DNA of 64,000 nt from Patescibacteria group bacterium (lineage in GTDB: Bacteria > Patescibacteriota > Patescibacteriia > UBA9570), in NCBI GenBank assembly GCA_041660305.1, contig JBAZWO010000001.1, positions 113,909 through 177,908 on the forward strand, written 5' to 3'. A program made the translations under genes and the position numbers. A model generated the notes under the pieces. It was not told the origin of the DNA. It saw only the letters and a program-made list of their open reading frames with translations, and ran no database searches. Shown piece after piece: positions 2,761 to 61,058 of this stretch (its first letter is position 1; each line of letters starts with the position of its first letter).

Positions 2761-2865
2761 CAACCTACCCTACCTCCCGGCCTCCTCCCCTCTAAAGGGA
2801 GGAGGAGAATTTCTCCCCTCCCTCTTTATAGGAGGGAGGGGCCGGGGGTGGAAGGTAGAATGAAA
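2761..2865. repeat. family A repeat copy (two hairpins)
   Basis: cctcctcccctctaaagggaggagg and cccctccctctttataggagggagggg. Confidence 0.7.
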
Positions 2866-2986
2866 AAGGCGCATTCTCGCGATCTACTAGGACGCAATTC
2901 TGACCACCGTTTACATCTATATATATTGTATATAGCTGGGAGCGGCTGCTAAATTGCTAGATCGTATTGAAAATACGCCTTTTTCA

Positions 2987-3032
2987 CTCTTCTCCCTCCC
3001 TTTGCAGGGGAGGGTTGGGGTGGGGTCTGTAA
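2987..3032. repeat. family A repeat fragment
   Basis: ccctccctttgcaggggaggg hairpin plus a G-run. Confidence 0.55.
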
Positions 3033-3228: not shown

Positions 3229-3684
3229 ATGGTTTTTATGCAAGTACAGCCGGTGAATATTAGCCCAACCAATGCCGATTTAATGTTGGCTATCCAACAA
3301 AATAATCGGAAATTAGATCAGCACATTAAAGAATCCGATACTAATCGTATGGAAATTTTATTGGCAATTAACGGTTTTGCTAATTATATGCAAGATAACA
3401 TGGTTACCAAAGAAGAATTTGGCGTAGTAAAACAAGATGTATCAGTGCTCAAACAAGATGTATCGACATTAAAACAAGATGTTAGTGAATTAAAACAGAA
3501 TGTAGCGGTATTAAATAAAAAAGCTAATGATACCGAAATTATTTTAGATGGCATTGCTACCAATGTTCATACCATTCAAACCGATCATTCTTTTGCCATT
3601 GAATGGCTAAAAAGCCATGATAAAAAATTAGACACGCATGAAGCTGACATTAAAAACTTACAGTTTCAATTAGGTTCGATTTGA
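3229..3684 (+). CDS. coiled-coil protein with tandem heptad repeats (KQDVSxL x4)
   Basis: 151 aa with VKQDVSVLKQDVSTLKQDVSELKQNVAVL. Same architecture as the paralogs at 33027 and 35621. Confidence 0.6.
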   Translation: MVFMQVQPVNISPTNADLMLAIQQNNRKLDQHIKESDTNRMEILLAINGFANYMQDNMVTKEEFGVVKQDVSVLKQDVSTLKQDVSELKQNVAVLNKKANDTEIILDGIATNVHTIQTDHSFAIEWLKSHDKKLDTHEADIKNLQFQLGSI

Positions 3685-3936
3685 AATACAGCTAGAATCA
3701 CAGATGGCGCAGATAAAATGCTGATTGCACAGATAAATTCAATTAATTAATTGTATTATCTGTGCTATCAGAAATTAATATCTGTGTAATCTGTGATTCA
3801 AGCATTTTGACCACATTATTCTATATTTGTCAATATATACGAGTGTTAAGACGTAAAAAAACTCGCTAATCACTGGTATAAAGAATCGGAACATAGTTGG
3901 GATGTAGTTTTTTGAAATTATCAATGAGTTTTATTT

Positions 3937-4266
3937 ATGGCTAAAAAAAGAATACTCCCAAAGGCAATAAGCCCATACGTTACAGCGTATTTAACTGTGT
4001 TAAAGGAACAACGTAAATTACCAATTACGGCCGCTTATGTATTTGGTTCGTGGTCAAAAGGCACACAACACGAAGATAGTGATATTGACATGTGTATAAT
4101 TTCACCAAAATTAACCGGCTGGATGAGAAGAGTAGATAAATTATCACCTGTGCCCTACTCTGATTTATTTATTATCGAACCACATGGTTTCACCCCCAAA
4201 GAATTTGACCCAAAAACAGACCCCTTAGCCTACGAGATTGTGAAGTATGGGATTAGGGTGATTTAG
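3937..4266 (+). CDS. minimal nucleotidyltransferase (MNT antitoxin-type), solo
   Basis: GSWSKGTQHEDSDIDMCIIS matches the GS...DxD polymerase-beta nucleotidyltransferase signature. Paralog of 32275..32601. No HEPN partner is adjacent. Confidence 0.75.
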   Translation: MAKKRILPKAISPYVTAYLTVLKEQRKLPITAAYVFGSWSKGTQHEDSDIDMCIISPKLTGWMRRVDKLSPVPYSDLFIIEPHGFTPKEFDPKTDPLAYEIVKYGIRVI

Positions 4267-5072: not shown

Positions 5073-5194
5073 TTTTTTTATTATTCCGCTAACCTCATCT
5101 TAAACTTATTGAAAGATAAAGTTACTGGGATATGGCTCAATTCGTCGTGTACAAGTACAGACAAGGCTGAGCCGGAACCTTAGAAAGGAACAAA

Positions 5195-5215
5195 GAGGAT
5201 TTTTTGGAAAAAAGG
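5195..5215. repeat. left terminal inverted repeat of GC-rich island (GAGGATTTTTTGGAAA)
   Basis: Reverse-complement partner at 9029-9048 (TTTCCAAAAAAAATCCTC). GC content jumps between these two sites. Confidence 0.5.
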
Positions 5216-5222
5216 CCGCCGG

Positions 5223-5966
5223 CTACTGGCTGCGGCGCAGACGGATCTCGATCCGTCGCCGCGCCTGGTCATTCCGCTGTTTGGTAGTCCCGGTCGCGAG
5301 AGAACCATCAGGCATCTGGGTCTGACCGGCCGATAGCGGCAACACCTGCAGTTTGCCACCCGTGATACGAGTGTCATTCAGCAGGAACTTGGCCACCGTC
5401 ACGGCTCGGGACAAACCCAGATCAGCGTTCGACCCTAAGGCCACGATCTCGTTGGCTTGTCCACTCAAGAACAGGAGCAAGTCCCGATCGAGAGTGGACA
5501 TCTTTCCGTACATAACCGTTTCGTCGGTATGTCCGACTACTTCGATTATGTCCGTGCCATAGGTCGCGGCCAACGTCAGAATTTGCGGGACGATCTTATC
5601 CCGCAGCTTTGCCTCGAAAGTGGCATCAACGTCCGCAGATCCGGACGTGAACGACCAACCACCCGCTTCGGACAGCGCGATGATGGGAGGCTGATCGTTC
5701 TTGGCCTCGGCCTGAAGCTTCTTCAACTTCTCGGCGTCCATGCCGAGTTTTTTTAGCTCCTCGGCCATGGCGCACACCTGCGCCTCGAGCTTTTTGTTTC
5801 TCTCGACGACCTCCTGTGAGGTCGTTTTTGCCAGGTTCTCCTGCAGCCGGTTGGCGTTGGCTGCAAGGATCATGTTTCCTATCATGGAAAGTGTTAGCAA
5901 AAGCAGAAGCACTTCCCAGCCCATGAGCGACTGGAGAAGTGCAGTGTTTCGTTGGTGTGCTGCCAT
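5223..5966 (-). CDS. MotB/OmpA-like protein (one N-terminal TM, coiled coil, OmpA-type peptidoglycan-binding C-terminal domain)
   Basis: C-terminal domain shows GHTDETVMYG...NADLGLSRAVTVAKFL...RRIEIRLRR, the OmpA_C signature. TM helix WEVLLLLLTLSMIGNMILAA. Its ATG overlaps the upstream stop (TAATG). Confidence 0.75.
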   Translation of the reverse strand: MAAHQRNTALLQSLMGWEVLLLLLTLSMIGNMILAANANRLQENLAKTTSQEVVERNKKLEAQVCAMAEELKKLGMDAEKLKKLQAEAKNDQPPIIALSEAGGWSFTSGSADVDATFEAKLRDKIVPQILTLAATYGTDIIEVVGHTDETVMYGKMSTLDRDLLLFLSGQANEIVALGSNADLGLSRAVTVAKFLLNDTRITGGKLQVLPLSAGQTQMPDGSLATGTTKQRNDQARRRIEIRLRRSQ

Positions 5967-6616
5967 TAATTTTTCCCCCCAGCATTCTGGTCAGGGAAAA
6001 AATCATTCAGATCCACCAACAACTTTCCAATTCCCGCGACCAGTACCCGGAACGCCTCGAGATCACCATTGAGCGCGTCCGAGTTCAGACGAGCTCGAGA
6101 CAACGACGTCCGCAATGCTTCCACCTCGGCCGTCACCGCTCCGATATTGCCGCTCCCGCCACCAACATTGCCCGTGTTACCACCACCACTTGCCGATCCG
6201 CCTCCGGAAAGCCCATCGATATAGTTTAGGGCCACCATACAGGTGAGCCCTATTGCCACCGACATCAGACCCTCCATCAGTGGAGCAACGATCTGACCGA
6301 CGGGCATGTCGGTCAGAGCTTTTGTTTTTACCCCGTCGAACACGATCCCCAAGGAAACTGCAAGAGCAGCAACCAGAGAGATAATGCCAATGGCTTGAAC
6401 CAAGGTAGCCACGGCGGTCAGTTGGACAGGATATTCCGTAGGGTCGTTTCTCAAAAACCACCTAACAGAAGTCACTGTGATAAAGATCATTCCCCCGAAT
6501 GCGGCTATGGGGAAGAGAACCTTCATCACGTTCAGGCTGCCAGAGAACCAGGACACGAGGAGCGCGAGCACAATCGCCACGAGAACTGGCAGCACTCGCC
6601 GAATGAGAAACTTCAT
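5966..6616 (-). CDS. MotA/TolQ/ExbB-like four-TM membrane protein with Gly-rich cytoplasmic tail
   Basis: 216 aa with four predicted TM helices; the last two are spaced like a MotA/ExbB family channel. AGGAGG ribosome-binding site. Tightly coupled to the OmpA-like gene downstream. Confidence 0.5.
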   Translation of the reverse strand: MKFLIRRVLPVLVAIVLALLVSWFSGSLNVMKVLFPIAAFGGMIFITVTSVRWFLRNDPTEYPVQLTAVATLVQAIGIISLVAALAVSLGIVFDGVKTKALTDMPVGQIVAPLMEGLMSVAIGLTCMVALNYIDGLSGGGSASGGGNTGNVGGGSGNIGAVTAEVEALRTSLSRARLNSDALNGDLEAFRVLVAGIGKLLVDLNDFFPDQNAGGKN

Positions 6617-6624
6617 GTCACCTC

Positions 6625-7680
6625 CTACTTTTTGCCATCCGTGAGCAGCTTATTACCGAAATCTTGCGATCCGGAAGACAACTGCCCAGCGTATTTTGCC
6701 ATGTAGTCCTGTACCACCTTTTTTCCGGCCACACCGCCACCCTTGAGGGCGGCCAGAATGGCCATCACGGCCATGTCCCGAACTGCCTCGGACCCGTCCA
6801 AGATTCCGCACTGCCCACCGCCGGCTTTGGCGATGGCCTTGAAGTTCTCGAGCGCGAGAGGGCTACCCTCTTTGCACTCGGAATCCTCGGGATGCGGAAC
6901 GTGGAACGTGTGGATGATGACCTTGCTGTCGCGAAGAGTCTTGGCGACATCGGTCGCGACCCCGTTTGGAACGGGGTATCCTCGCTTCCGATAGTACACC
7001 AGTTCCTCTGCGCTGTGGGCACGGGCATCACCAATTATCAGCACCATGTCCACCACATCCTGCATCTGCACCACTTCGTTCAACCCGTATTCCAGAGCCT
7101 CGGGGTAAGGATATGGATCCTCTCCCCGCTCTCCACCGCCGGCCGCGTAGATACCGCGCAACCACTGCTTGATCTGGCCGGGGTCGTTTCTGAATCCGGA
7201 ACGCTCGATGATCTTGCTGTCACCATAGTCTCGATATGCGATAACCTCGACCTGAAGACGCTCTCCGGCCTGCTCTCTTGCCCGCATGACAATGTCATCC
7301 ATCTGATTCCGGACGCCATTGATGGTGGGTTGTTGAGAACCTGTGGCATCGATGAGGATCACGACCTTGCCCTCTTTCTGGGCCGAGGTCTGCTCTTCCT
7401 TCGCCTGCTGGCCTGCCTGCCGATACCGAGCCATACGATCTTCCTGAGACTCAGACAGCCGACCGACGGCGGTTGACTGAGGCTGCTGCCTGGCCACACC
7501 AGTTACGGTGCTTCCAGGCAGAGCCTTGGGCCCGCTGCCACTGCTGGAGCTCTGCTGGGCACTTCCCGGAGGAAGCGCGCGCTGAGGCTGCTGCTGGCCG
7601 CTGCTGCTTGCTGCTTGCTGCTCGGGGTTCTTTTTTTCTACGTCCTTGTCTCCACCACGAAGCTTGCTAAAAAGTCCCAT
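6625..7680 (-). CDS. von Willebrand factor A (vWA) domain protein with Gln/Ser-rich N-terminal region
   Basis: VVILIDATGSQQ is a MIDAS-like D-x-T-x-S, followed by VEVIAYRDYGDS and MVLIIGDARAH beta-strand motifs typical of the vWA fold. AAGGAG ribosome-binding site. Confidence 0.6.
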   Translation of the reverse strand: MGLFSKLRGGDKDVEKKNPEQQAASSSGQQQPQRALPPGSAQQSSSSGSGPKALPGSTVTGVARQQPQSTAVGRLSESQEDRMARYRQAGQQAKEEQTSAQKEGKVVILIDATGSQQPTINGVRNQMDDIVMRAREQAGERLQVEVIAYRDYGDSKIIERSGFRNDPGQIKQWLRGIYAAGGGERGEDPYPYPEALEYGLNEVVQMQDVVDMVLIIGDARAHSAEELVYYRKRGYPVPNGVATDVAKTLRDSKVIIHTFHVPHPEDSECKEGSPLALENFKAIAKAGGGQCGILDGSEAVRDMAVMAILAALKGGGVAGKKVVQDYMAKYAGQLSSGSQDFGNKLLTDGKK

Positions 7681-7691
7681 CGTTCATCTCC

Positions 7692-8972
7692 TTATTTCTT
7701 CGGTTTTCCCTTATCAAGGGTCGCTCTATGCTTAGCAGCGTCCTTGAACAAACGTTCATGCTCTTCGCGCTCCTTGGGAGGAGCGGAGGTATGTCTGTCC
7801 GGATGGTGCTTGAGAGCCATCTTGCGATACGCCTTTTTGATTGTCTCAGCGCTATGCTCGGTGTCCCGAGCATAGCCGAAGAAATCGCAAGCGTCGCACC
7901 AGGCTTGCCAGTCCTTGTCGAACGTGGAAGCCTGTTTCGGATCTTGCCACTTGCCGCCACCATACTGCGCCTGGATCTGCTTGATAAAGGCGTCAATGTC
8001 GCCCCGTACTTGAGCGAGTGACTCGAGCAGTTCAATTACCTCGTCTAGCGACGAGGCATCGTGCACTGCTTTTTCGAGCCGCTCTTTCTCAACAACGAGA
8101 CCGTCCATCAACGCTTCGTTGGCCTTAACCCAGTCCAAAACCTTCTGCTTGCGCATCAGGTCCGGATTCTGAGCCGGCCAATACTGCAGCATCCAGGCGA
8201 TCTGGCCGCCCAGAACGGAGATGAGAAACTGAAAGTTACCCCATTCCTTCTGGAAATCGACCAGTAGAGACCGTGCTTCATTGGCTTCCTCAAGAGAAAG
8301 CCCTGTGGGGTTCGAACTGAACGGCTTGAGCATCTTGAGAAACTGCTCGAAAGCCGCCAGCTGAATTTTTCCACGGAGCCCCTCCGCCTCGGGCACCACC
8401 GCTAACATGATTCTGGCGGTGTCGAGGAGTGTTTCAGCCTGCTGGTGATTAGCCATGTGCATAGCTGAAATAATTTGGTCACGCGAACCGTCCGACAGCC
8501 TACCCCGAAACTCACCGAGCTCGAGGAGGATGCCGATAACCTGGTTGAGACGTACAAACTCCGCCGGGGACTTGGCGCGTATACGATCCACGTTGATCCC
8601 GTAAGCGGAGCAGAACTCCCGGAATGCCTGAACCGGCCCCGGGTGAGTCGCTAAAAGCTGAAAGTACTCACCCGGTATCCACTCCAGCCCCAGCCGCGCG
8701 AACAGAGCATTTGCAGCTCGTTTTTGCAACCGAGGCAGAGCGGGGTGTGCCGTAGGATCAAAACGAGCGAGTCGCGACCGTTTGGGAACCCCGCCGATGC
8801 CGGATCCCGAAACGCGCTGCACCCGCTGCTTGGCCTGCGGCCCGACAGACTGTGGGGTTGAAGGGTCAGGGACCCCCAACCGCCGTCGAAGCCCAATAGG
8901 CAGACGGTGGCCGAGGGCGAGAAGCACACTCAAGAACCTCTTGAGTAGCTCCTCTAGGGCGGACTTAATCAT
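7692..8972 (-). CDS. large helical protein with C-terminal DnaJ J-domain (HPD motif)
   Basis: C-terminus SAETIKKAYRKMALKHHPDRH is a canonical J-domain. Start chosen at MIKSALEEL, with GGGAGG four nucleotides upstream. The ORF track extends to 9050. Confidence 0.8.
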   Translation of the reverse strand: MIKSALEELLKRFLSVLLALGHRLPIGLRRRLGVPDPSTPQSVGPQAKQRVQRVSGSGIGGVPKRSRLARFDPTAHPALPRLQKRAANALFARLGLEWIPGEYFQLLATHPGPVQAFREFCSAYGINVDRIRAKSPAEFVRLNQVIGILLELGEFRGRLSDGSRDQIISAMHMANHQQAETLLDTARIMLAVVPEAEGLRGKIQLAAFEQFLKMLKPFSSNPTGLSLEEANEARSLLVDFQKEWGNFQFLISVLGGQIAWMLQYWPAQNPDLMRKQKVLDWVKANEALMDGLVVEKERLEKAVHDASSLDEVIELLESLAQVRGDIDAFIKQIQAQYGGGKWQDPKQASTFDKDWQAWCDACDFFGYARDTEHSAETIKKAYRKMALKHHPDRHTSAPPKEREEHERLFKDAAKHRATLDKGKPKK

Positions 8973-9028
8973 CGAACCTCCCTTGTGGCCATTCGTTAGC
9001 CACGTTTTTCGTTTTCTAAAATCAAAAA

Positions 9029-9048
9029 AATTTCCAAAAAAAATCCTC
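9029..9048. repeat. right terminal inverted repeat of GC-rich island
   Basis: TTTCCAAAAAAAATCCTC is the reverse complement of the left repeat at 5195-5212, allowing for T-run length. Confidence 0.5.
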
Positions 9049-9103
9049 AATTTTCAACGATCAAGCCTGTAACAAAGATATTATCCTTGCCAGGCTAATT
9101 TAA

Positions 9104-9204: not shown

Positions 9205-9405
9205 AAATCAACCGAGCAAAAAGCACAATACCACCTTATTTTAGGTTATTTATTATAATTTTTGGTAGGTAATGTGGTTCATATAAGAACGAGCCAGAAT
9301 ATCACTTTTTTTTGATTTTGTCAATACCAAATCTGTTTAGCACCATATTATTGTATATTTGTCAATATATACGTGTGTTAGTTAGCTTGTTATAATAACA
9401 ATATT

Positions 9406-18124: not shown

Positions 18125-18165
18125 TAAGTTAATATATATGAAATTACGTAATAATTCAAATTCCT

Positions 18166-18310
18166 ACCTCACCTCCAACCTCCTCTCCTCTAAGGAGAGG
18201 AGGAGAAATTTATTAAATTTTATTTTATTCCCCCTCTCTCCTTAGAGGAGAGAGGGGGTAGGGGAAGTGAGGTAGGCTGTTTAGGGGAAGGGGGTTAGGG
18301 TGATGAGGTC
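18166..18310. repeat. family A repeat (long form)
   Basis: cctcctctcctctaaggagaggaggag ... ccccctctctccttagaggagagaggggg ... gatgaggtc. Confidence 0.8.
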
Positions 18311-19569: not shown

Positions 19570-19738
19570 CCCCTAAATCACCTTTCCCCAACCTACCTCA
19601 CCTCCCAGCCTCCTCTCCTCTCAGGAGAGGAGGAGAAATTTCTTAAATTGCATTTTATTCCCCCTCTCTCCTCAGAGGAGAGAGGGGGTAGGGGGAGTGA
19701 GGTAGGATGTTTAGAGGGGGTCGGGGGGTGATGAGGTC
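19570..19738. repeat. family A repeat (long form)
   Basis: Same nested palindromes as 18166-18310. Ends in gatgaggtc. Confidence 0.8.
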
Positions 19739-21060: not shown

Positions 21061-21228
21061 AGACCTCTATCCCCAACCCTTTCCCAACCTACCTCACCTC
21101 CCGGCCTCCTCTCCTCTAAGGAGAGGAGGAGAAATTTATTAAATTTTATTTTATTCCCCCTCTCTCCTCTGAGGAGAGAGGGGGTAGGGGGAGTGAGGTA
21201 GGCTGTTTAGGGGGCTGGGGGGCTTAGA
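21061..21228. repeat. family A repeat (long form)
   Basis: agacctctatcccc ... same palindromes as other long copies. Confidence 0.8.
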
Positions 21229-23977: not shown

Positions 23978-24000
23978 TGCAATATATATTAATGTTTAAG

Positions 24001-24156
24001 CCCCCTTTCCCAACCTACCTCACCTCCCGGCCTCCTCTCCTCTAAGGAGAGGAGGAGAAATTTATTAAATTGCATTTTATTCCCCCTCTCTCCTCAGAGG
24101 AGAGAGGGGGTAGGGGGAGTGAGGTAGGATGTTTAGTGAGTCGGGGGTGATGAGGT
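24001..24156. repeat. family A repeat (long form)
   Basis: Same nested palindromes. Ends in gatgaggtc. Confidence 0.8.
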
Positions 24157-26103: not shown

Positions 26104-26142
26104 AGTTAAATTATTATAGCACGTTTTAAAGCATGAGCAATA

Positions 26143-26215
26143 CAGACCTCATCCCCCTAGCCCCCTTCTCCTAACAACCTACCTCATCCCCAGCCCTTCT
26201 CCTCTCAGGAGAAGG
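26143..26215. repeat. family A repeat (short form)
   Basis: gacctcatccccctagcccccttctcct ... ctcaggagaaggg. Confidence 0.7.
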
Positions 26216-26279
26216 GAGTTATACTACTATTATTGAGCGCTCACATTTTTTTAATTGAGCGTTTTTATATTTATTTTTT

Positions 26280-26606
26280 ATGTTTATTCGTCCACAACAA
26301 TCTAACACCATTGAATTACAACATCGTTTACAATATATCGCTAAAAAATTTCGTAAAAAACCAACCGTAACTGAACAAAAATTATGGCAATATTTACGAA
26401 ATCGTAAATTAAATGGTTTAAAATTTAATCGACAACATCCAATCTATCAATACATTGCTGATTTTTATTGCCATGAGTATAAGTTGATTAGGGATTTAAT
26501 GTTAAAAAAATATGACTATACCGTATTACGTTTTAATAATGAACAAGTGATGAATAATATTAGTTATGTGTTAAAACAAATTAAATCTACTCCCCCTTCT
26601 CCTTAG
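26280..26606 (+). CDS. DUF559-type endonuclease-like protein, apparently with an internal deletion (possible pseudogene)
   Basis: PTVTEQKLWQYLRNRKLNGLKFNRQHPIYQYIADFYCHEYKLI matches DUF559. The expected catalytic core (...IEVDG...) is missing. The C-terminal residues and stop come from the family A repeat. Confidence 0.5.
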   Translation: MFIRPQQSNTIELQHRLQYIAKKFRKKPTVTEQKLWQYLRNRKLNGLKFNRQHPIYQYIADFYCHEYKLIRDLMLKKYDYTVLRFNNEQVMNNISYVLKQIKSTPPSP

Positions 26607-26674
26607 AGGAGAAGGGGGTTGGGGGGATGAGGTAGGATGTTTAAATTAGGGAGAGGGGGCTAGGGGGATGAGGT
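26590..26674. repeat. family A repeat
   Basis: cccccttctccttagaggagaaggggg ... ctagggggatgaggtc. Confidence 0.75.
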
Positions 26675-26677
26675 CTA

Positions 26678-29802: not shown

Positions 29803-30114
29803 TTATAAAGGTTCAGCTTTTGGAGAAGGGATAGATTGTATAATACGAAATATACCTTCAGTATTAGCACAATTTACTTTTTGTTTACCACCAGCCGTTT
29901 CAATTAAAAGGGGATGTTCAATTTGAACCCACCCTTTTTCGAGTTCTTTGTCTCGATTTAACATGTTTTTTAAATACTGTTTGGAATTCACCGAATCTGT
30001 TAAAACTTCAATAACGTCTGTAATTACAAACCACCACTCATTACGATAAATGGTTTTTCTAATAGTTTTGCCTCTAAATAAGGCAATTTGCGTAGTTGAG
30101 CTGGCATTGATCAT
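29803..30114 (-). CDS. Bro-N/KilA-N-like domain protein (DinD-like)
   Basis: IALFRGKTIRKTIYRNEWWFVITDVIEVL pattern. Confidence 0.45.
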   Translation of the reverse strand: MINASSTTQIALFRGKTIRKTIYRNEWWFVITDVIEVLTDSVNSKQYLKNMLNRDKELEKGWVQIEHPLLIETAGGKQKVNCANTEGIFRIIQSIPSPKAEPL

Positions 30115-30219: not shown

Positions 30220-31482
30220 CTATACAAGCTTTTTCTTCATCAATTTCCCGATCATATATAATGACCCGGTAACTAACCCCAAATCTTTAGGTTGCAACAT
30301 TGTTTGTAATTTTTGATAAGCTAAAATAGGATCTTTTTGCAAAATAATTTTAAGACGCGGATTTAATTGTCGGGCAACTTGCCGCAAAGTTAGCAAAGAC
30401 ATGCCTTGATCAAACGAAGTTAAAATTAATACATCGGTAAATTTTAATAACGATCGCAAAGTGGCAGTGGCATCTTTTGAATATTTTAAGGCCAACAACA
30501 CTATCACTTGATTATAATCTTTAACTTTAACTACTTGGCGCAAAGAATCGGTAAAAGCGCGCATTTTTTGCGGATTATGCGCGCCGTCTATAATTATTAA
30601 TGGCTGTTTACTTACTACTTGAAAACGCGCTTTAGATTTAACCTGTTTTAAGCCTTGATAAATAGCCGTTTTATTTACATGCAACGCTTTAGCTACTGTA
30701 ATTGCCAAAATAGCATTGCGCACCTGATATTTACCTACTAAATTTAACTGCACATTTTTAAAAGTTTTATAATTAAATACCGTGCCGGTTAAATTTTGTT
30801 TTAAAATATCAGCCTCATTTAAATTAAGCTGGCGGCCGCATTTTACATAAGTTGAGCCGGTTAAACCGATACAGCCCGGCTTAATAATAACTTCTTTTTC
30901 TTTGGCAATCGCCCGCTTGGTTTTGCCCAATAAATCAGTGTGGTCTAGGCCAACATCTGTTACCACCGCTACTTTAGGAGTAACAACATTAGTGGCGTCT
31001 AACCGTCCGCCTACTCCCACTTCGATCACGGCATAATCAACTTGACTTTGGGCAAAATAATACAAAGCCAGCACGGTAAATAATTCAAAATAAGTGAGCT
31101 GTAAATCTTTGATTTTTTCCCAAACAGAATTCAATAATTTCACAAAAGCAGTTTCACCAATACTGCGGCCGTTAATTACCAATCGTTCCAACGGCCCGGT
31201 TAGATGCGGTGAAGTATAAATGCCGGTTTTGTAACCAGCTGAACGCAGAATAGAGTAAATCATCTGGCAAGTAGACCCTTTGCCAGAAGTGCCACCCACA
31301 TGAATCACTTTATATTTTAACTGCGGATTGTCTAATCTAACCACCGCTTGCTGTACGCGTTCCAATGTATAACAACCAGTGCCGCGCTTAGCATCTTGCT
31401 TATGTAAATAATGCTCGATATCGGCTAAAGAGGTAAAAAATGGCATAAGCACATTATAGCTAGCTTGCCTCTTTTTCGACAC
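30220..31482 (-). CDS. folC: folylpolyglutamate synthase / dihydrofolate synthase (Mur ligase family)
   Basis: VGGTSGKGST P-loop and Mur-ligase central and C-terminal domains. Confidence 0.65.
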   Translation of the reverse strand: MSKKRQASYNVLMPFFTSLADIEHYLHKQDAKRGTGCYTLERVQQAVVRLDNPQLKYKVIHVGGTSGKGSTCQMIYSILRSAGYKTGIYTSPHLTGPLERLVINGRSIGETAFVKLLNSVWEKIKDLQLTYFELFTVLALYYFAQSQVDYAVIEVGVGGRLDATNVVTPKVAVVTDVGLDHTDLLGKTKRAIAKEKEVIIKPGCIGLTGSTYVKCGRQLNLNEADILKQNLTGTVFNYKTFKNVQLNLVGKYQVRNAILAITVAKALHVNKTAIYQGLKQVKSKARFQVVSKQPLIIIDGAHNPQKMRAFTDSLRQVVKVKDYNQVIVLLALKYSKDATATLRSLLKFTDVLILTSFDQGMSLLTLRQVARQLNPRLKIILQKDPILAYQKLQTMLQPKDLGLVTGSLYMIGKLMKKKLV

Positions 31483-31523
31483 TGGACAAAATCGAAAAAA
31501 TGTGATAAAATATTATCATAATT

Positions 31524-32231
31524 ATGAGAACTGGAGTAGAAAAATTACATAGACCAGTAGACAAAAAACAAAATCCTTGGTTGGCACGTGGAGTGGCAGC
31601 CGCGGCTTTATTAGGTATTGGCGGAACTGCTTATGAAAGATGTGCTGCACCATCAGAACCAGATCCAACTGCTGATACAAACCCAGATACAACGAATGAT
31701 AGCAACGATAAAAAACCTATTCCGAGAACAACGAGAGACGTTGCAACACAAGCCTTGCCGCTTAATCTAGAACCTGCAAAACCATCAATGATAAATGATT
31801 TAAAAAAATGGCAAGAAATAGAATCAGAAGGAACTTATACTTTGCCTAGCCGTGTTGATTTAATTAATGATTTATTTTCCGCTTTGTCTCAAGACATAAA
31901 AGATAACCTCGTTGTTCGCGCTGACAAAAATACTGAATTAGCCATTACATTATATAATGTAAATCAAGATTCTTTGCTTTTATCAGTAAATGAATCAGGT
32001 AAATATATATTATCAACTACTAGTTATAATGAAAACAGAAGAGTTGATGTTTCTCATGATGTAGAAATGTTTGATAATGTAGATGAAGTAGTTAAATTTT
32101 TACATAAACTGAAAACAAAGCTCGACCAAAATCAACCCTCAACTGGTCCTAACCGTGCCACAGAAGCAAGTAGAGCCGGAGGAATTATGGCTGAATTTAT
32201 TAAAAATTATAGTACTAGTGAAGAAGAATAA
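31524..32231 (+). CDS. hypothetical secreted protein
   Basis: N-terminal hydrophobic segment AAAALLGIGGTAY and an acidic/Thr-rich region. Confidence 0.4.
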   Translation: MRTGVEKLHRPVDKKQNPWLARGVAAAALLGIGGTAYERCAAPSEPDPTADTNPDTTNDSNDKKPIPRTTRDVATQALPLNLEPAKPSMINDLKKWQEIESEGTYTLPSRVDLINDLFSALSQDIKDNLVVRADKNTELAITLYNVNQDSLLLSVNESGKYILSTTSYNENRRVDVSHDVEMFDNVDEVVKFLHKLKTKLDQNQPSTGPNRATEASRAGGIMAEFIKNYSTSEEE

Positions 32232-32274
32232 TAGGTATATAATTCTTTAAAATAAACTCCATCCAGCGCTACGC

Positions 32275-32601
32275 TTAAACAATCCGTACACCATTTTGTT
32301 TTATTTCCGCCACCAAAGAAGATGTAATGACGCTGAAATCTTTTGGACAAAAACCAACCGGTTCAATCATGGGGTCAAGATTTTTTGGCCGCTTCTGCCA
32401 CAAATATTGCAAAGCCTGCCAGGGCTGTTTAAATTTTGCAGAAATAATACAAACATCAACATCGCTCCAGCGGTGCTGTGTTCCTTTGGCATACGATCCG
32501 AATAGATATACTTGTTTTACCGGTATATTATCTGTTTCGATGTCCTTGACAAATGCGTTAATAGAATTAATTATTTTTTTGGATATTCGTTTTTTAACCA
32601 T
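32275..32601 (-). CDS. minimal nucleotidyltransferase (MNT), paralog of 3937..4266
   Basis: LFGSYAKGTQHRWSDVDVCIIS. Confidence 0.75.
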   Translation of the reverse strand: MVKKRISKKIINSINAFVKDIETDNIPVKQVYLFGSYAKGTQHRWSDVDVCIISAKFKQPWQALQYLWQKRPKNLDPMIEPVGFCPKDFSVITSSLVAEIKQNGVRIV

Positions 32602-32623
32602 AAAAACATCTCTTTAGCTTTCT

Positions 32624-32761
32624 TTAAATTATCTTTTCAATCGCTAAATGTGCATAAAACAACGACGCATCATAATGTTTAGTTTTAAATAAATCCAAAG
32701 ACGTTTTCCAATTACGCTCAGCTGATTGCCTCCAATAGTTAATTTGTTCTTCAAGTATCAT
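32624..32761 (-). pseudogene. truncated HEPN N-terminal fragment (45 codons) upstream of MNT
   Basis: MILEEQINYWRQSAERNWKTSLDLFKTKHYDASLFYAHLAIEKII* looks like the first HEPN helices. It ends before any R-x4-6-H motif. Confidence 0.45.
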
Positions 32762-33026
32762 AACTGCTAAATTTTATCATTTTTTTTAAATAAAATCAAT
32801 CATGGCATTTACAAATCCCTAAATTAGGCGTAAAATAGGGAATGTAATCCTTAAATTAGACATAATATATATTCACTAAGCTACTTTTGTTGTTCATGAT
32901 TGTTTAATAAATTTTGACGTGCTGAGCAGAAAAAACATAAAAATAAACTCATTAGACGTGAAGTGAGGTAGAACGATAAGACACCTAGCGACGTCTCTGT
33001 TTAGCGCCGTCTGGGGAAAACTTGGC

Positions 33027-33440
33027 TTGAAACAAGTGTGTTTTCGTGATAACATGCTCGTACTTATGGAACAAGATACAACTAAATTAGAAATTTTACA
33101 GGCCATCAATAAATTTGCTACTCGTGTTGAAGAAAATTTTACTGAAGTTAAACAAGACATTAAAGATATTAAGAAACGGGTCACAAATCTGGAAACTAAA
33201 GTATCTTCAATTGAGACTAGAGTTGGATCACTTGAAACAGATACTAAATCAATAAGGTCTCAAATGGTAACAAAAAGTTATCTGGATGATAAGCTGTCCG
33301 ACTTGCACGGTGAAACTATTAAATTAACAAAACAAACCAATAATAAAGTCGTTAGTTTGGCTAATCATCTCCATAATGAAGAGAGTTTATCCACCAACAG
33401 TCTAAAACAAGTAATTGCTTTACCGCCATTTGCGGTTTAA
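33027..33440 (+). CDS. coiled-coil heptad-repeat protein, copy 1 (true start probably MLVLMEQ/MEQDTTK)
   Basis: VTNLETKVSSIETRVGSLETDTKSI heptads. About 90% identical to 35621..36097 apart from repeat number. Confidence 0.6.
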   Translation: MKQVCFRDNMLVLMEQDTTKLEILQAINKFATRVEENFTEVKQDIKDIKKRVTNLETKVSSIETRVGSLETDTKSIRSQMVTKSYLDDKLSDLHGETIKLTKQTNNKVVSLANHLHNEESLSTNSLKQVIALPPFAV

Positions 33441-33456
33441 GAAGCTTCACCTTTGA

Positions 33457-34566
33457 TTATTTTGTAAAATAATTTCTAAAATCTAATTGGGTAATTTTAG
33501 AAAAATCAGTTTTGCTATTTTTTGCAATATAAGTAATGGCAAAAACTGGATTTACATTATAGTCGAGTTTTTCAAAATGTAAAATTTCCCCCAAATCTTG
33601 TTTTAACTTATCGTAATCTGGTCGATACTCATTCAGGTTAAGGCCGATAGGATTGTAACACAACACCCAGCCGTAATATTTATGCCGGTGACTTTGAAAA
33701 ATGGTTTGCCAATCAGGCGCCGTACTGTCAAAAAAATGTTGATATGGATTTACGCCAAAACCATAATATGGTAAATCCGCTAAACCAAAGCCACCAAAGC
33801 GCGGCACGTTCAATTCAATCGGCATAAGCCTACCATTCTTTTCCTTAAATTCAGCGTGAATTGGTAAATTTTTTATATGCAATTTTTTATTTAATGCAGT
33901 AAATAAATCAACCACTTGCTTAGCGTAAGTATGATAAATTTCTTCATTCGTATAATACAGCAGGTGAAAATAATCCTGAATAGCAGACAGAGGATGATGA
34001 CAAAAATTCGTTATCACCGGATTACCGGTAGCATTGTAAAATAGATCAAAGGTATACTCATCACCGGTGATATACTCCTCTATCAAAAAATCATTACTAG
34101 TAAATACTTGGGATGAAAAAAATGAACCGCTCTTTTGAATTTCAACTTTAAGTTCTTGCGCTAACCGAGCTAAATTAGTTGTACTATCCATTGCTCTAAC
34201 GCCGATACCAAAGAAGCCCTGCTGTGGCTTAATGATATACTTCTTGCCCGAAGCAATTTTTACGGTCGGTAATTTATCAAGCGTGATCGCTGCAAAATAA
34301 AAATCACTGTGGCTATCCTGCAGCAGCTCACGGCATTGCTTTTTATTTTTTATCTGCTTAATTTTCTGCGGTGTAGTATTACTGGAATATTTTTCCAAAA
34401 CACTTGGTACTGATGTTTCGTCTGGTACGTAGATATAATCATCTGTCGTAAATTCCACTTTTGCGACATTGAGTTCTGCTTCAGATAACACGCTGTAGTC
34501 TTTATGATATCTCAAGGCAGTTAAAAGTGGCGACGTATAATTATGACCCGTGATGATATATTTCAT
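33457..34566 (-). CDS. ATP-grasp domain protein
   Basis: KKYIIKPQQGFFGIGV, LIEEYITGDEYTFDLF and MPIELNVPRFGG motifs. Confidence 0.6.
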   Translation of the reverse strand: MKYIITGHNYTSPLLTALRYHKDYSVLSEAELNVAKVEFTTDDYIYVPDETSVPSVLEKYSSNTTPQKIKQIKNKKQCRELLQDSHSDFYFAAITLDKLPTVKIASGKKYIIKPQQGFFGIGVRAMDSTTNLARLAQELKVEIQKSGSFFSSQVFTSNDFLIEEYITGDEYTFDLFYNATGNPVITNFCHHPLSAIQDYFHLLYYTNEEIYHTYAKQVVDLFTALNKKLHIKNLPIHAEFKEKNGRLMPIELNVPRFGGFGLADLPYYGFGVNPYQHFFDSTAPDWQTIFQSHRHKYYGWVLCYNPIGLNLNEYRPDYDKLKQDLGEILHFEKLDYNVNPVFAITYIAKNSKTDFSKITQLDFRNYFTK

Positions 34567-34688
34567 AAAATTAAAAATAGAGTTATTGGCAATAGTTTAG
34601 AAGTAAACTACATTCTGACAAATACATCCATGCATATTTATCATTTTTATTACCTAATGTTAGATATTTATATAAGAGATAATCTTTT

Positions 34689-35522
34689 TTGTCGGAATCA
34701 TTTGACACTATTGAGAACACTTGCTACCTTACACCAATGGATGCGCTGCTACTCCAAAAACTCACTCAACTTGGCCTACAAAAAAATGAAGCTAAAATCT
34801 ATTTAACAACTCTAGAATTGGGTCAAGGAACAGTGACGACTATTAGTAAAGCTGCCTATATGAACCGAACAACTGGCTATGATATTCTGGAACGTTTATG
34901 TGTGTTTGGAATTGTGAATCGCAGTCTGTTGAAGAAAAAACGTATTTATATTTCTGAGCCACCCATTCGCCTAAAATATTATCTTGAAAATAAAAAAAGA
35001 CAGGCGGAGCGGCGGATGGAAGAACTAGAAACTATGTTGCCAGATTTAAAGTCGCTCCACAATAATACCAACCTAAAACCAATCATTAAGTTTGCTGAAG
35101 GTAAAAAAGCCATGGAACAAATGTATTATCACAAGTTGGATTCTAAAAGCACCATCTACTCTATCCTGAATCAAAAAAATGTGAACCTGTTTGATGAAAT
35201 GGGATCCTTTCAATCGCTTGAACGCTTCAAACGAGGCATTAAAGAAAAAGTTTTGGCCATAGAAAATGACGAAGGTGTTGAGTGGTATAAAAAAATATAT
35301 GGAAAAAATAAAAAAAGACAGGCCAATACGGAATATCGCTGGATCAAAAATGAACAGCGCGGTCAAACCGGCGGTGAAATAAGTATCTTTGATGATAAAG
35401 TCAATGTGCTGCTCTCGAGCTCGACGGAAAATATGGCCTTTGAGATACAAAGTCAAACCTTTGCCGATTTTCTAAAAGTCACGTTTGAACTGGCCTGGAC
35501 TAAAGCGCAAAATAAATTTTGA
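34689..35522 (+). CDS. TrmB-family transcriptional regulator (start probably at 34737 MDALLLQ)
   Basis: N-terminal winged helix LGLQKNEAKIYLTTLELGQGTVTTISKAA...GYDILERL. Confidence 0.6.
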   Translation: MSESFDTIENTCYLTPMDALLLQKLTQLGLQKNEAKIYLTTLELGQGTVTTISKAAYMNRTTGYDILERLCVFGIVNRSLLKKKRIYISEPPIRLKYYLENKKRQAERRMEELETMLPDLKSLHNNTNLKPIIKFAEGKKAMEQMYYHKLDSKSTIYSILNQKNVNLFDEMGSFQSLERFKRGIKEKVLAIENDEGVEWYKKIYGKNKKRQANTEYRWIKNEQRGQTGGEISIFDDKVNVLLSSSTENMAFEIQSQTFADFLKVTFELAWTKAQNKF

Positions 35523-35620
35523 ACCAAACGCCCCTGAACAGCGTTGGATTTGAATAATAATCCATGAATCCTGTTTAGCGACGGTTCTAACAAAATAGCG
35601 CCGTCTGGGGAAAACTTGGC

Positions 35621-36097
35621 TTGAAACAAGTGTGTTTTTGTGATAACATGCTCGTACTTATGGAACAAGATACCACTAAATCAGAAATTTTACAGGCCAT
35701 CAATAAATTTGCTACTAACGTTGAAGAAAATTTTACTGAAGTTAAACAAGACATTAAAGATATTAAGAAACGTGTTACAAAGCTTGAAACCAAAGTAGAA
35801 TCTATTGAAACCAAAGTAAAATCTATTGAAAACAAGGTAGGGTCTCTTGAAATTAATGTGGGATCACTAGAAACCAAAGTCGGATCACTTGATACAACTA
35901 CTACATCAATACGGGCTCAAATGGTAACAAAAAGCTATTTAGACGACAAATTGGCTGACATGTACGGAAAAAATATTACTCATACTAAACAAATCAACAC
36001 TAAAGTTGTTTCTTTAGCTAATCATCTTCGTGATGAAGGAAATTTATCCACCAACAGTCTAAAACAAGTAATTGCTTTACCGCCATTTGCGGTTTAA
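35621..36097 (+). CDS. coiled-coil heptad-repeat protein, copy 2 (three extra heptads)
   Basis: ETKVESIETKVKSIENKVGSLEINVGSLETKVGSL. The 5' and 3' 50 codons are nearly identical to copy 1. Confidence 0.6.
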   Translation: MKQVCFCDNMLVLMEQDTTKSEILQAINKFATNVEENFTEVKQDIKDIKKRVTKLETKVESIETKVKSIENKVGSLEINVGSLETKVGSLDTTTTSIRAQMVTKSYLDDKLADMYGKNITHTKQINTKVVSLANHLRDEGNLSTNSLKQVIALPPFAV

Positions 36098-36157
36098 GTA
36101 TAAATAATTTTGATTTTATCTGCCAAATTTTGAGCGGCGTTGGGCTTATTTAAAGTT

Positions 36158-37357
36158 TTATTGTTTTACCAAACGTAAAGCAATCATATCCATCGCAAAC
36201 AAAGGAGCGTCGTATTGAGCAATGCCATTGTTACTAATCCTGGCACTGGTGCGATTGGCCAAAAAAATATAAAACAATTCTTTATTGTGATTAGCTTTTA
36301 CTAAAAATCCTTGTTTTTGAGCAATCAAACAAATTAATTCTCGTGCTTCGGCCATATCACTTATATATTTAACCCGATCATTTATCGTCATAGGGTCTTC
36401 CTTATAACCATGTTCAATTAAGCAAAAACTACCGCCTGGCCTTAAAACCCGACTAACTTCTGTAAAAATGGCTGTAATTTGTTCTGGAGTAGCCAATCTG
36501 GTGTTCCTTTTGGATTTAGCATGTAAATTATCTAATAAATGGTCCTCGTAAACCTGATCCATACTATCAGCTCGATAAGGCAACGCTAAAGCATTACCTT
36601 GTACTAAACATAAATTATTTTCTCCTTGATATGGCTGAATTAGTTTTACCTGTTTGTCTTTTATTTCAACTACATGATTATGTGAACGCCGATCAAGCTT
36701 TTTACCAAATTTAGCAAACTCACGAGCTGAGTATTTCCCTAAAGAGCCAAGTAATAATAAACTTGGGGCATTGGTTTGCATGCGTAATTTTAAAATTTCT
36801 TCCGGACTAAGTAACTCTAAATAAGTAGGCTCGTTAATTCCAAAAGTAGAATTAAATGCTACTAAATGATTTTCTAAAGTTTCCTCTAAATGTGGGTATT
36901 TTTCGATCGTTTCCAATGAATCTTTTTGTATCTTTAAAATAAGCTCTTGTAATGAATAATCCCTTGACACAACTCCGGCGGATTTAGCTTCTTCTAAAAT
37001 TTCTACTAATACTGAATCGTCATGTAACACTAATTTTTTATAATCCAGTATTGCTTTGAATCGATCCGGCATTAATTCTTGTTCAACATCTTCATATGAC
37101 TCGTTACCATTAGTAATGGTACTAGCAATCTCTGCTATTGTTCCACCCGCCTTTCGTAATTCTGCAATAGCGTTTTTGCCGGCTTCACCCTGTTGTAATA
37201 ATAATCTAAAACCAAGATAAATTAATTCTGGATCTCGTCTATTTCTTAATAATTCCTCCTTAACTAGCGCAACATCACCGGTTTGAGCAACTTTAAAAAT
37301 TTCCGGCACTGGATAATTTTGTCTACTTTCAACGCGAATATCTCGTTCTGGTAACAT
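36158..37357 (-). CDS. class I SAM-dependent methyltransferase with N-terminal helical domain
   Basis: VLRPGGSFCLIEHG, the Methyltransf_11-type motif. Confidence 0.5.
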   Translation of the reverse strand: MLPERDIRVESRQNYPVPEIFKVAQTGDVALVKEELLRNRRDPELIYLGFRLLLQQGEAGKNAIAELRKAGGTIAEIASTITNGNESYEDVEQELMPDRFKAILDYKKLVLHDDSVLVEILEEAKSAGVVSRDYSLQELILKIQKDSLETIEKYPHLEETLENHLVAFNSTFGINEPTYLELLSPEEILKLRMQTNAPSLLLLGSLGKYSAREFAKFGKKLDRRSHNHVVEIKDKQVKLIQPYQGENNLCLVQGNALALPYRADSMDQVYEDHLLDNLHAKSKRNTRLATPEQITAIFTEVSRVLRPGGSFCLIEHGYKEDPMTINDRVKYISDMAEARELICLIAQKQGFLVKANHNKELFYIFLANRTSARISNNGIAQYDAPLFAMDMIALRLVKQ

Positions 37358-37390
37358 ATTCTTTTAAGGATTTTAGCAAAATGTAAAGCA

Positions 37391-38503
37391 TTATTCAAGA
37401 GCAAAAATAATTTCAGCCAAAAGCCGGGCGGCATTGGGTTTAACCAATGATTTTATGTTCTGGCTCAGTTGTTGTTGTAAAACTGTATTATTTAGTAAAT
37501 TTTGAATAGTTTTTGTTAATAATTGCGCTGTTAATCCTGCTTGAGACAGAATAATTGCCACTTGGCGTTTCTTTAAATACTCCGCATTATATTCCTGATG
37601 CGAATGGGGAATGGGGATAATAATAGCCGGCTTGCCTAAAAGCGCTAATTCGGAAATAGTGCCTAAGCCGGCTCGGGCTACTACTATATCGGCTTTATGT
37701 AAAGCCTCGGCATATTCACTGGTTAATAATTCAAACGCATGATAACGAGTGTGTTGAATATTCGGATGTGTTTTATTTTTGCCAGTAACGTGAATGACGT
37801 TCGCTATATCACACAAGTCTGCACTGACTAAATCGTTAATGGCTTGCGCGCCGGTACCGCCGCCGACGATAAATACTGTTGGATAATTTTGATCTAATTT
37901 AAAATAATTAGTAGTAGGAGTTAAATCGCGCACCGGATTGCCAATCCACTCGGCGCCGCGCAATGAAATATCATTAAAAGCTTTGGTAAGCGCCATAGCA
38001 AATGGAGCGGTTAAACGAGTAGTTAAGCTAACCTGTAAATCTTGCTGGTGCACTACTATTTTTACCCCGCAACACCAGCCGGCCCACACCACTGGTGGAG
38101 CAATAAAACTACCAGCTGATATAATTACTTGCGGCTTATATTTTAAAATTAAATATAACGCTTTAAAAAAAGCTAATTTAATAAAGATAATATCAATAAA
38201 ATTGCGCCAAGAAAAATAGCGCCTAAATTTGCCAGCCGGAACGGTTAAATAAGTAAAACGCTCCCCTACCAACATGCGCTCTACACCGGTTTTAGTGCCG
38301 ACAAAATAAATTTTAGCATCAACTAAATGCTCGGCCACGGCCAACAACGGCATTACTGATCCGGCGGTACCACCGCCTACTAAAAAAATACCTACCTCAT
38401 CCCCAACCCTTCTCCTCAAAGGAGAAGGGAGAATTAGCTTTTCATTATTCCCCCTCTCCTCAGAGGAGAGGGGGCTAGGGGGTGAGGTAGGACAAGTTTT
38501 CAT
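37391..38503 (-). CDS. murG: undecaprenyldiphospho-muramoylpentapeptide beta-N-acetylglucosaminyltransferase
   Basis: IFLVGGGTAGSVMPLLAVAEHL, GT28 fold. The N-terminal 40 codons derive from the family A repeat at 38393-38498. Confidence 0.75.
   Translation of the reverse strand: MKTCPTSPPSPLSSEERGNNEKLILPSPLRRRVGDEVGIFLVGGGTAGSVMPLLAVAEHLVDAKIYFVGTKTGVERMLVGERFTYLTVPAGKFRRYFSWRNFIDIIFIKLAFFKALYLILKYKPQVIISAGSFIAPPVVWAGWCCGVKIVVHQQDLQVSLTTRLTAPFAMALTKAFNDISLRGAEWIGNPVRDLTPTTNYFKLDQNYPTVFIVGGGTGAQAINDLVSADLCDIANVIHVTGKNKTHPNIQHTRYHAFELLTSEYAEALHKADIVVARAGLGTISELALLGKPAIIIPIPHSHQEYNAEYLKKRQVAIILSQAGLTAQLLTKTIQNLLNNTVLQQQLSQNIKSLVKPNAARLLAEIIFALE
38393..38498. repeat. family A repeat overlapping murG 5' end
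   Basis: cccttctcctcaaaggagaaggg ... ccccctctcctcagaggagaggggg. Confidence 0.75.
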
Positions 38504-60993: not shown

Positions 60994-61002
60994 ATTTTTT
61001 AA

Positions 61003-61058
61003 ATCATTCCCCCTCTCTCCTTAGAGGAGAGAGGGGGTAAGGGGGAGTGAGGTAGTTT
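61003..61058. repeat. family A repeat (short)
   Basis: ccccctctctccttagaggagagaggggg. Confidence 0.75.

Follow-up and report, generated by a model that had tools for sequence, protein, structure and literature searches.

The 64,000 nt stretch of contig JBAZWO010000001.1 (a Patescibacteria group bacterium, assembly GCA_041660305.1) analyzed here, referred to below as the window, contains two direct repeats at 33002-33440 and 35596-36097, each of which encodes a small heptad-repeat coiled-coil protein. We consider it probable, at roughly 70%, that the two genes, cc1 and cc2, are paralogues in a Patescibacteria heptad-rod family whose members change length in 21-nt steps, that the ends of the two genes have been homogenized, and that both lie in a lineage-specific island. 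In line with an earlier model-generated reading of the window made from its letters (the sequence-only reading), which gave the coiled-coil family no function, no curated family in Pfam or NCBIfam covers the two proteins.

The repeats were recognized by reading and aligning the sequence, and an independent repeat finder agreed. Each contains a single open reading frame (ORF) on the forward strand with its own promoter: cc1 (33066-33440; 124 aa, P0002; NCBI MFA5994956.1, a 128-aa call) has approximately three heptads and cc2 (35660-36097; 145 aa, P0001; NCBI MFA5994959.1, a 149-aa call) has approximately six. The difference in length is exactly 63 nt, or three 21-nt units. The 63 nt missing from cc1 lie in a forward-strand tandem array at 35783-35892 that encodes ETKVxSI/L heptads and in which Tandem Repeats Finder counts 5.2 copies of a 21-nt unit with 77% matches. 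The interval from cc1 to cc2 contains an ATP-grasp_4 gene and a second gene whose product has a TrmB winged-helix domain. The sequence-only reading had described this same layout, with paralogous heptad-repeat proteins encoded around ATP-grasp and TrmB genes and three extra 21-bp units in the second copy, and these points are correct; the identity, given there as about 90-95% for the 5' UTR, N-terminal codons and last 50 codons, is not uniform and forms a mosaic. Public data held no repeat-number or hybrid variants of cc1 or cc2, the extra cluster members being alternative start calls.

A protein family specific to Patescibacteria

A word-indexed search with cc2 returned only the window's own two proteins, an orthologue (P0003, 56% identity) and coiled-coil look-alikes. 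Pattern scans of DNA collections confirmed 190 loci among species-representative genomes plus 165 from metagenomes, a search with a profile built from the C-terminal module, which has no repeats, led to 509 clusters, and an exhaustive HMMER search identified 1,698 representatives (50% identity), with E ≤ 1e-10 for 1,066. All of the best 150 of the 1,698 representatives measure 96-202 aa, carry the module C-terminally and lack fusions to other domains. Host labels include Patescibacteria, Falkowbacteria, Uhrbacteria, Magasanikbacteria, Kuenenbacteria, Kaiserbacteria and Parcubacteria, and we conclude that this is an unannotated family, with an MVTK-YLD signature, specific to Patescibacteria (candidate phyla radiation, CPR, bacteria).

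Approximately 26 genomes labelled "uncultured Gammaproteobacteria bacterium" in GTDB (L011, L013, L014, L016 and others up to L078) also carry the family. We did not accept these host labels, as the proteins encoded next to the family genes align over hundreds of residues with their counterparts at Patescibacteria-labelled loci, at 60-92% identity; to judge from these comparisons, the labels are almost certainly placeholders or mislabels. One further carrier is labelled Methylomirabilis, and here the label is taken as in the record.

Family members consist of an N-terminal head, a variable run of heptads and a C-terminal module. The head is typically MExxxxxxEILEAINxFAxxVDxRF, with the pattern [EDN]-[IV]-L-x-A-[IV]-x-x-F-[AS], and heptad types across the family include SDVSSLK, DKVDERF, GEISGMK and TEIGGIK. 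The module is about 58 residues long (MVTKDYLDDKLADLRGDLVVLxRKEDxK...LVEIL...MEPFP) and ends in a PF motif; M-V-T-K-x-Y-x-D is invariant, and the L is invariant in alignment A4 and nearly invariant in alignment A5. Both window proteins have the head (EILQAINKFAT, then heptads), lengths (124 and 145 aa) inside a range of about 95-200 aa, and the module (MVTKSYLDDKL ... ALPPFAV), which is encoded on the forward strand at 33264-33437 in cc1 and at 35921-36094 in cc2. They form a divergent branch, with 35-45% identity to canonical members, in which the otherwise near-invariant RGD and RKED residues have been lost.

An AlphaFold2 model of cc2 based on a 114-sequence alignment (predicted local distance difference test score, pLDDT, 89.6) has helices at residues 7-87 and 91-125 and a short helix at 131-138. 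The break between the two long helices falls exactly at MVT (residues 88-90), and the isolated C-terminal module models alike. When the window copies, canonical members and the isolated module were compared with Pfam, NCBIfam, PHROG and PADLOC, only sub-threshold or heptad-only coiled-coil signal was obtained. Two Pfam families scored above threshold, CCDC53 (26-28 bits, threshold 24.6) and CLZ (27.2 bits, threshold 26.7); because both align to the heptad region alone, we interpret these matches as generic coiled-coil signal. The best weak profile was DUF7310, at 29-35 bits for the cc copies (34.9 for cc2) against a gathering score of 40, and the isolated module matched no profile family. Two relatives suggested in the sequence-only reading were not borne out: XhlA scored 18-19 bits against a cut-off of 34.7, and DUF1640 was absent from the best 25 of the 77, 121 and 28 families matched by the copies. 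No relative was found in PDB by sequence or by fold, and a literature search by topic and signature motif returned no paper containing the motif. The suggestion that the proteins are not obviously secreted holds, since neither a signal peptide nor a membrane segment is visible on reading the sequence.

From these features, the cc protein would be a cytoplasmic, self-associating coiled-coil rod, its location and oligomeric state being predictions from sequence. The conserved head and tail may be the working parts, with the number of heptads setting the spacing between them. At about 1 nm per heptad, the cc2 rod would be approximately 3 nm longer than that of cc1.

Variation in heptad number

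Across the family, the distance from the start codon to MVTK forms a ladder of 38, 45, 52, 59, 66 and 73 residues. Allele pairs were chosen with C-terminal modules at least 93% identical and the first 20 residues at least 85% identical; among the chosen pairs of unequal length, 103/107 differ by exactly 7, 14 or 21 residues. L088, P0077 and P0067, for example, have identical modules with four, three and one SDVSSLK units, respectively. In replicate samples from Hainich groundwater well H41, two otherwise identical alleles (L095 and L100) have five and four copies of SEMTDMK, which directly shows that heptad number is polymorphic at a single site.

Units of 21 nt are also repeated at the DNA level: 44/145 genes have at least two near-identical units and 27/145 have at least three, at 88-100% identity. 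On this similarity, such arrays appear fresh and slippage-prone, and units would be gained or lost by replication slippage or unequal recombination. Some differences between near-identical alleles involve the type of repeat (GSIKSEI in L084, DKVDERF in L007). Because slippage alone cannot produce such a swap, replacement of the central block by recombination is needed as well.

Slipped-strand or recombinational repeat variation, which the sequence-only reading had proposed from the window copies, is thus well founded for the family, but the window's own arrays are degenerate, with only 2.3 units at 96% identity in cc2 and none in cc1. Judged by this decay, they are old and appear to be poor slippage substrates today.

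A mosaic of identical ends and divergent centres

Identity between cc1 and cc2 changes sharply along the repeats. The 64 nt 5' of the ATG are identical at 63/64 positions. Codons 1-36 are 95% identical at the nucleotide level (33 identical codons, one synonymous and two non-synonymous changes), codons 37-128 are only 71-80% identical (22 synonymous and 22 non-synonymous changes), and the final 18 codons including the stop are identical in all 18 cases (54 coding nt). Similarity breaks off at the stop codon; at the other end, approximately 20 nt of weaker similarity extend 5' of 33002 and 35596.

The outgroup used to interpret this pattern was the orthologue in L001, a sister-species locus whose murG has about 68% nucleotide identity. 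In the central block (codons 99-128), identity is 0.71 between cc1 and cc2, 0.74 between cc1 and L001 and 0.68 between cc2 and L001, making the centres of the two paralogues as diverged from each other as from the sister-species orthologue. In the 5' block, by contrast, the paralogues are 0.95 identical to each other and 0.82-0.83 identical to L001, and in the 3' block these values are 1.00 and 0.67. We infer from these comparisons that the mosaic arose by gene conversion or by recombination with another allele: following an old duplication, gene conversion would have homogenized the ends of cc1 and cc2, or recombination between alleles would have replaced one centre.

A similar pattern is observed elsewhere in the family. 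In L035, from an unrelated, higher-GC Uhrbacteria genome, two cc copies 4.4 kb apart have identical promoter-proximal and 5' sequences and different centres. Identical ends with different centres are also found in the tandem arrays of L089, L098 and L115, and tandem arrays of two or three paralogues are the commonest multi-copy state across the family.

Promoters and start codons

The region upstream of cc1 (33002-33065, forward strand) contains a -35 element (TTGAAA, 33027-33032) and an extended -10 element (TGaTAACAT, 33047-33055). This region is duplicated upstream of cc2 (35596-35659, forward strand; -35 at 35621-35626, -10 at 35644-35649), and a promoter scan of both copies gave TTGAAA and TAACAT separated by 17 nt, with an upstream TG. 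The -10 hexamer of cc1 (33050-33055) overlaps the ATG of the longer MLVLMEQ start and ends 10 nt before the ATG of MEQ. JGI and ENA gene calls start at MEQ, while NCBI calls start four codons earlier at MLVLMEQ. Because the -10 element overlaps the upstream ATG, which is missing from the L001 orthologue, we take the conserved MEQ ATG (33066 in cc1, 35660 in cc2) as the start. Since MEQ begins 10 nt past the -10 element, the leader should be only a few nt long, and the cc mRNAs are probably near-leaderless transcripts from an extended -10 promoter. The sequence-only reading had correctly placed a promoter near or overlapping the annotated ATG, but its leaderless start at MLVLMEQ gives way to a near-leaderless start at MEQ.

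Proximity of the -10 element to the ATG is a trait of the family. In 21% of family genes, the last base of an extended -10 (TGnTAnnnT) lies 5-11 nt ahead of the ATG, compared to 5% of 1,416 background genes taken from these loci; at 12-18 nt before the ATG, the figure for family genes is 1.5%. Plain -10 elements are likewise enriched near the ATG in the family (Fisher p = 2e-7). A missing Shine-Dalgarno sequence was considered as a special feature of these genes and discarded, as a Shine-Dalgarno-like motif occurs in just 4/44 genes of the genome. An Rfam search of the 5' region found no riboswitch or known RNA.

Just 5' of the cc promoters is a conserved element, GCCGTCTGGGGAAAAC, with an imperfect hairpin upstream of it, located within the duplicated regions at 33005-33020 and 35599-35614 and at approximately bp 825-850 of L001. 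It occurs in 3/135 family upstream regions, all three within the window's sub-lineage, and could be an operator or a terminator remnant.

An accessory island in the dcw cluster

The cc genes lie in an accessory island of approximately 5.9 kb (31447-37390) between a Mur ligase gene and murG of the dcw (cell-wall/division) cluster. A MurG search identified sister genomes at 61-66% identity; in three of these (L163, L164 and L165), ftsW, murG and the Mur ligase gene are contiguous, with gaps of 1-47 nt, and no homologues of the island genes were found at these loci. Because murG and the Mur ligase gene are adjacent in the sister genomes, we interpret 31447-37390 as a lineage-specific island. Its GC content is 33-37%, compared to 38-46% in the flanks. 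L001 has a different and smaller insertion at the same site, with one cc gene of approximately two heptads that is convergent on and abuts murG, plus an unrelated 251-aa gene. The site is therefore a variable island within the dcw cluster.

Starting from murG, the island contains a methyltransferase gene, cc2, the TrmB-type regulator gene, the ATP-grasp gene, cc1, a HEPN remnant with a nucleotidyltransferase (NTase) gene, and a 235-aa orphan. The ATP-grasp, TrmB and methyltransferase genes and the NTase/HEPN remnant are cargo of this island.

The ATP-grasp gene (33457-34566, reverse strand, 369 aa) is convergent with cc1, and its product belongs to the ATP-grasp superfamily (PF13535 ATP-grasp_4, 123 bits, E = 9.5e-36). 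NCBIfam provided no specific match; among annotated relatives, the best are genes for an "ATP-grasp domain-containing protein" on Clostridium megaplasmids, at 32% identity. The regulator gene (34737-35522, forward strand) encodes 261 aa from its ATG or 277 aa from a TTG at 34689. Its winged helix matches Pfam TrmB (42 bits, cut-off 25.6), while the NCBIfam TrmB/TrmBL1 equivalogs score 22-28 bits; because these scores are far below their cut-offs of 600-650, the regulator can be considered TrmB-like in its DNA-binding domain only; bona fide TrmB has a C-terminal domain for sugar binding as well.

The methyltransferase gene (36158-37357, reverse strand, 399 aa) lies between cc2 and murG, is absent in L001 and encodes a class I domain (Pfam Methyltransf_11, 26.5 bits, cut-off 21.2). 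On the far side of cc1, the reverse-strand segment 32275-32761 encodes an MNT-type NTase (32275-32601; NTP_transf_2, E = 5.7e-12) and a truncated, weakly matching HEPN protein (32624-32761), and PADLOC assigns PDC-S09 here. Because the HEPN partner is just 45 aa in length, this toxin-antitoxin pair is judged to be decayed. The hypothetical gene at the distal island edge (31524-32231, forward strand, 235 aa) has no Pfam match and no homologue in the sister loci. A gene with a Bro-N domain is present at approximately 29803-30114 (4144-4455 in L002, an independent ENA assembly), between the Mur ligase gene and murC; as these two genes are adjacent in sister locus L165, the Bro-N gene appears to be a second small insertion in the dcw cluster.

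Origin of the repeat pair

Duplication followed by conversion and a Campbell-type integration are not separable with the present data. In the latter, a circular DNA carrying the ATP-grasp and TrmB genes and its own cc allele would have recombined into a resident cc gene. Alleles of related strains share near-identical ends around different centres (as in L084 and L007), and integration of such an allele would produce the mosaic without later conversion. L001 would then represent the single-copy state next to murG and L035 a second instance, and the GC content is slightly lower in the cassette. However, the searches turned up neither a plasmid nor any other donor element carrying a cc gene, and the methyltransferase gene between cc2 and murG requires a separate event. 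We regard such an integration as rather unlikely.

The sequence-only reading had suggested that the direct repeats could mediate excision or duplication of an ATP-grasp/TrmB cassette. On such a view, the repeats would be the ends of a mobile cassette, with these genes looped out as a circle or having entered in that form. The cc copies are in direct orientation, and their perfect tracts (56, 53, 43, 34 and 34 nt) exceed the roughly 25 bp needed for RecA-dependent exchange. Exchange across these tracts (34-56 nt) could remove the intervening 2.6 kb and leave one hybrid gene, although this event was not observed. Recombination between the copies, or between their alleles, is evident from the mosaic, and in L035 the two cc copies surround 4.4 kb with a weak IS110-like ORF (6221-8206; a 661-aa protein matching an IS110-type transposase at 21 bits, cut-off 29). 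Against these points, Pfam and PADLOC scans detected neither an integrase nor a transposase or relaxase next to the window copies or in the segment separating them, and no integrase or transposase gene is present in 31447-37390. The centres are 20-29% diverged, as expected of copies that have long coexisted. Public contigs containing cc2 (three of three) share the same neighbourhood, the one compared by sequence (L002) being identical to the window, and no hybrid cc protein occurs among close homologues. Furthermore, sister genomes are without the entire 5.9-kb island, not the 2.6-kb cassette, and most multi-copy loci are plain tandem arrays. With no recombinase and no variant arrangement, this proposal is not upheld and we consider it quite improbable; the local "cassette" is ordinary island cargo, not a demonstrated mobile element.

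Identical gene ends could also reflect purifying selection on nucleotides (the promoter, the leaderless initiation region and a 3' structure) rather than recombination. The 5' block does hold the promoter and initiation region, leaderless mRNAs would be expected to constrain the first codons, and conservation in the protein is concentrated in its head and tail. L001, however, keeps the same amino acids at only 82% (5') and 67% (3') nucleotide identity, while all 18 codons of the 3' block are identical between the paralogues. Because synonymous change is free in L001, selection at the nucleotide level is unlikely, and we give it little credence as the cause of the identical ends.

The location of cc1 and cc2 beside an ATP-grasp ligase gene raises the question of a system for ribosomally synthesized and post-translationally modified peptides (RiPPs), in which cc1 and cc2 would be graspetide-like precursors modified by the ATP-grasp enzyme and TrmB would regulate the three- or four-gene module. 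The repeat units are rich in T, S, K, E and D, and graspetide precursors can carry repeated core motifs. We rejected this candidate, which is very improbable, for three reasons. First, no ATP-grasp homologue was found near approximately 150 other family members or among their top neighbour families, and the L001 locus has no ATP-grasp gene. Second, the ATP-grasp protein has no microviridin- or graspetide-type NCBIfam match. Third, the cc proteins are confidently predicted to form long helices with conserved ends, a helical rod rather than a leader and core.

An origin of the two repeats in faulty assembly, through mis-joining or duplication of part of a contig, is scarcely credible even for a metagenome-assembled genome with anomalous high-GC blocks elsewhere in the window, since the copies are diverged rather than collapsed duplicates, the same proteins are present in JGI, ENA and NCBI records, and over 20,438 nt across the locus L002 matches the window at 100% identity.

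We therefore prefer to view cc1 and cc2 as length-variable paralogues with homogenized ends in a lineage-specific island, and several points count against parts of this view. Gene conversion is deduced by means of one outgroup sequence (L001), and nucleotide constraint on the promoter and 5' end could add to the 5' identity, although it explains the 54 identical 3' coding nt less well. Because the window's own arrays are degenerate, ongoing slippage at this locus is doubtful. The leaderless interpretation comes from promoter geometry and not from mapped 5' ends, just as the oligomeric state and cytoplasmic location of the rod come from sequence only. With respect to a cellular role, no conserved neighbour, domain fusion or structural analogue was found for the family.

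Genomic neighbourhood of family members

Immediate neighbours of family genes (111 upstream and 113 downstream) were scanned with Pfam and proved to be heterogeneous and of housekeeping type. The commonest families were RecA (5/111), DinB/IMS (4), PSP1 (4) and EF-P (4/113). A conserved operon was considered for the family and rejected, as no neighbour family exceeded five members, and for the same reason TrmB and ATP-grasp cannot be viewed as recurrent partners. No IMG/VR viral contig contained the motif and GenBank phages gave no match. The association with prophage or defence loci that the sequence-only reading had raised for checking was thus not found, PADLOC returning only coiled-coil noise.

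Comparison with known systems

Streptococcal M and M-like proteins are heptad rods built from tandem DNA repeats that change copy number in frame, and they are secreted and anchored to the cell wall by means of a signal peptide and LPXTG motif. The cc proteins are similarly predicted heptad rods with tandem repeats, in-frame length changes, conserved ends and a variable block. Unlike M proteins, they are 100-160 aa in length and have no visible export signal; they show no sequence or profile similarity to M proteins, and nothing here points to a role in antigenic variation. Weak profile likeness to the cc proteins is seen over the heptad region in DUF7310, XhlA (PF10779), NPV_P10, DUF2730 and DUF1664. 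XhlA-type proteins have a membrane segment, however, while none is visible in the cc proteins, and the cc C-terminal module matches none of these families.

DUF16 of Mycoplasma (PF01519) is a multi-copy family of small coiled-coil proteins from reduced genomes and, like the cc family, consists of amplified paralogous small helical proteins in small-genome bacteria. PF01519 does not match the window proteins, however, and the architecture and lineage are different.

Duplicated bacterial genes can evolve in concert through gene conversion, tufA and tufB being an example. As with these genes, parts of the cc paralogues are closer to each other than to the orthologue, but conversion of the cc genes would be partial, affecting the ends only while the centre escapes, and the copies are direct repeats 2.6 kb apart. 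Finally, genes of the cc family resemble simple-sequence contingency loci in that coding tandem repeats differ in copy number between strains. In contrast to phase-variation loci, the 21-nt unit never shifts the frame, so that the length of the protein is altered with no on/off switch.

Other features of the window

A third family member had been proposed at 3229-3684 (cc3, forward strand). It belongs to the family only in part: it has the N-terminal head and KQDVSxL heptads, with a BLASTP match over 84 residues (E = 4e-10), but the conserved C-terminal module is missing. cc3 lies next to a further set of NTase/HEPN genes, and the NTase encoded at 32275-32601 is 39% identical to that encoded beside cc3 at 3937-4266.

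The low-GC segment with cc3 and these NTase/HEPN genes separates two blocks of 52-62% GC (1-2900 and 5100-9100) in a contig of approximately 37% GC. The ORFs of the high-GC blocks mostly have no Pfam match, apart from weak OmpA-like and VWA domains and one DnaJ domain. These blocks could be foreign DNA or a chimeric join; the genome's own repetitive extragenic palindrome (REP)-like elements are found at the border (2761-3026). A 39-nt direct repeat (3810-3848 and 9342-9380, 92% identical) brackets the NTase/HEPN genes and the second high-GC block, and may represent promoter duplication or the scar of an insertion.

The REP-like palindromes are GC-rich, take the form CCCCCTCTCTCCT...AGGAGAGAGGGGG and are dispersed through the window, at 2761-3026, 18146-18301, 19576-19731, 21072-21227, 23998-24153, 26140-26676, 38390-38482 and 60997-61043. 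In the longest murG ORF (37391-38503), a spurious N-terminal extension results from reading through one of these copies.

Significance

The local arrangement described here, paralogues that recombine in an accessory island, is ordinary, and delimitation of the family is the more useful result. Variable-repeat coiled-coil genes and concerted evolution of paralogues are phenomena of a known kind; the family itself was previously unannotated. A more speculative interpretation, which we think unlikely, is that the family is a length-tunable molecular spacer in use across Patescibacteria, in which rapid gain, loss and swapping of heptads, sustained by recombination among alleles and paralogues with homogenized ends, is adaptive, for instance to tune an intracellular scaffold or to evade a phage or host factor that recognizes the rod. 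If true, ultra-small symbiotic bacteria would have a previously unrecognized class of contingency gene that varies without frameshifting.

About half of Patescibacteria genes carry no annotation. This analysis delimits a large family among them, comprising >1,000 clusters at 50% identity; it is marked by a clear signature, is confidently modelled as all-helical and has promoter geometry of a leaderless type. The behaviour of the family is both unusual and measurable, in that the length of the rod is quantized in heptads and recombination probably keeps the two ends similar. Curators gain a new family that can be defined, and population genomicists gain a natural marker with which to follow recombination and micro-diversity among strains of unculturable organisms.

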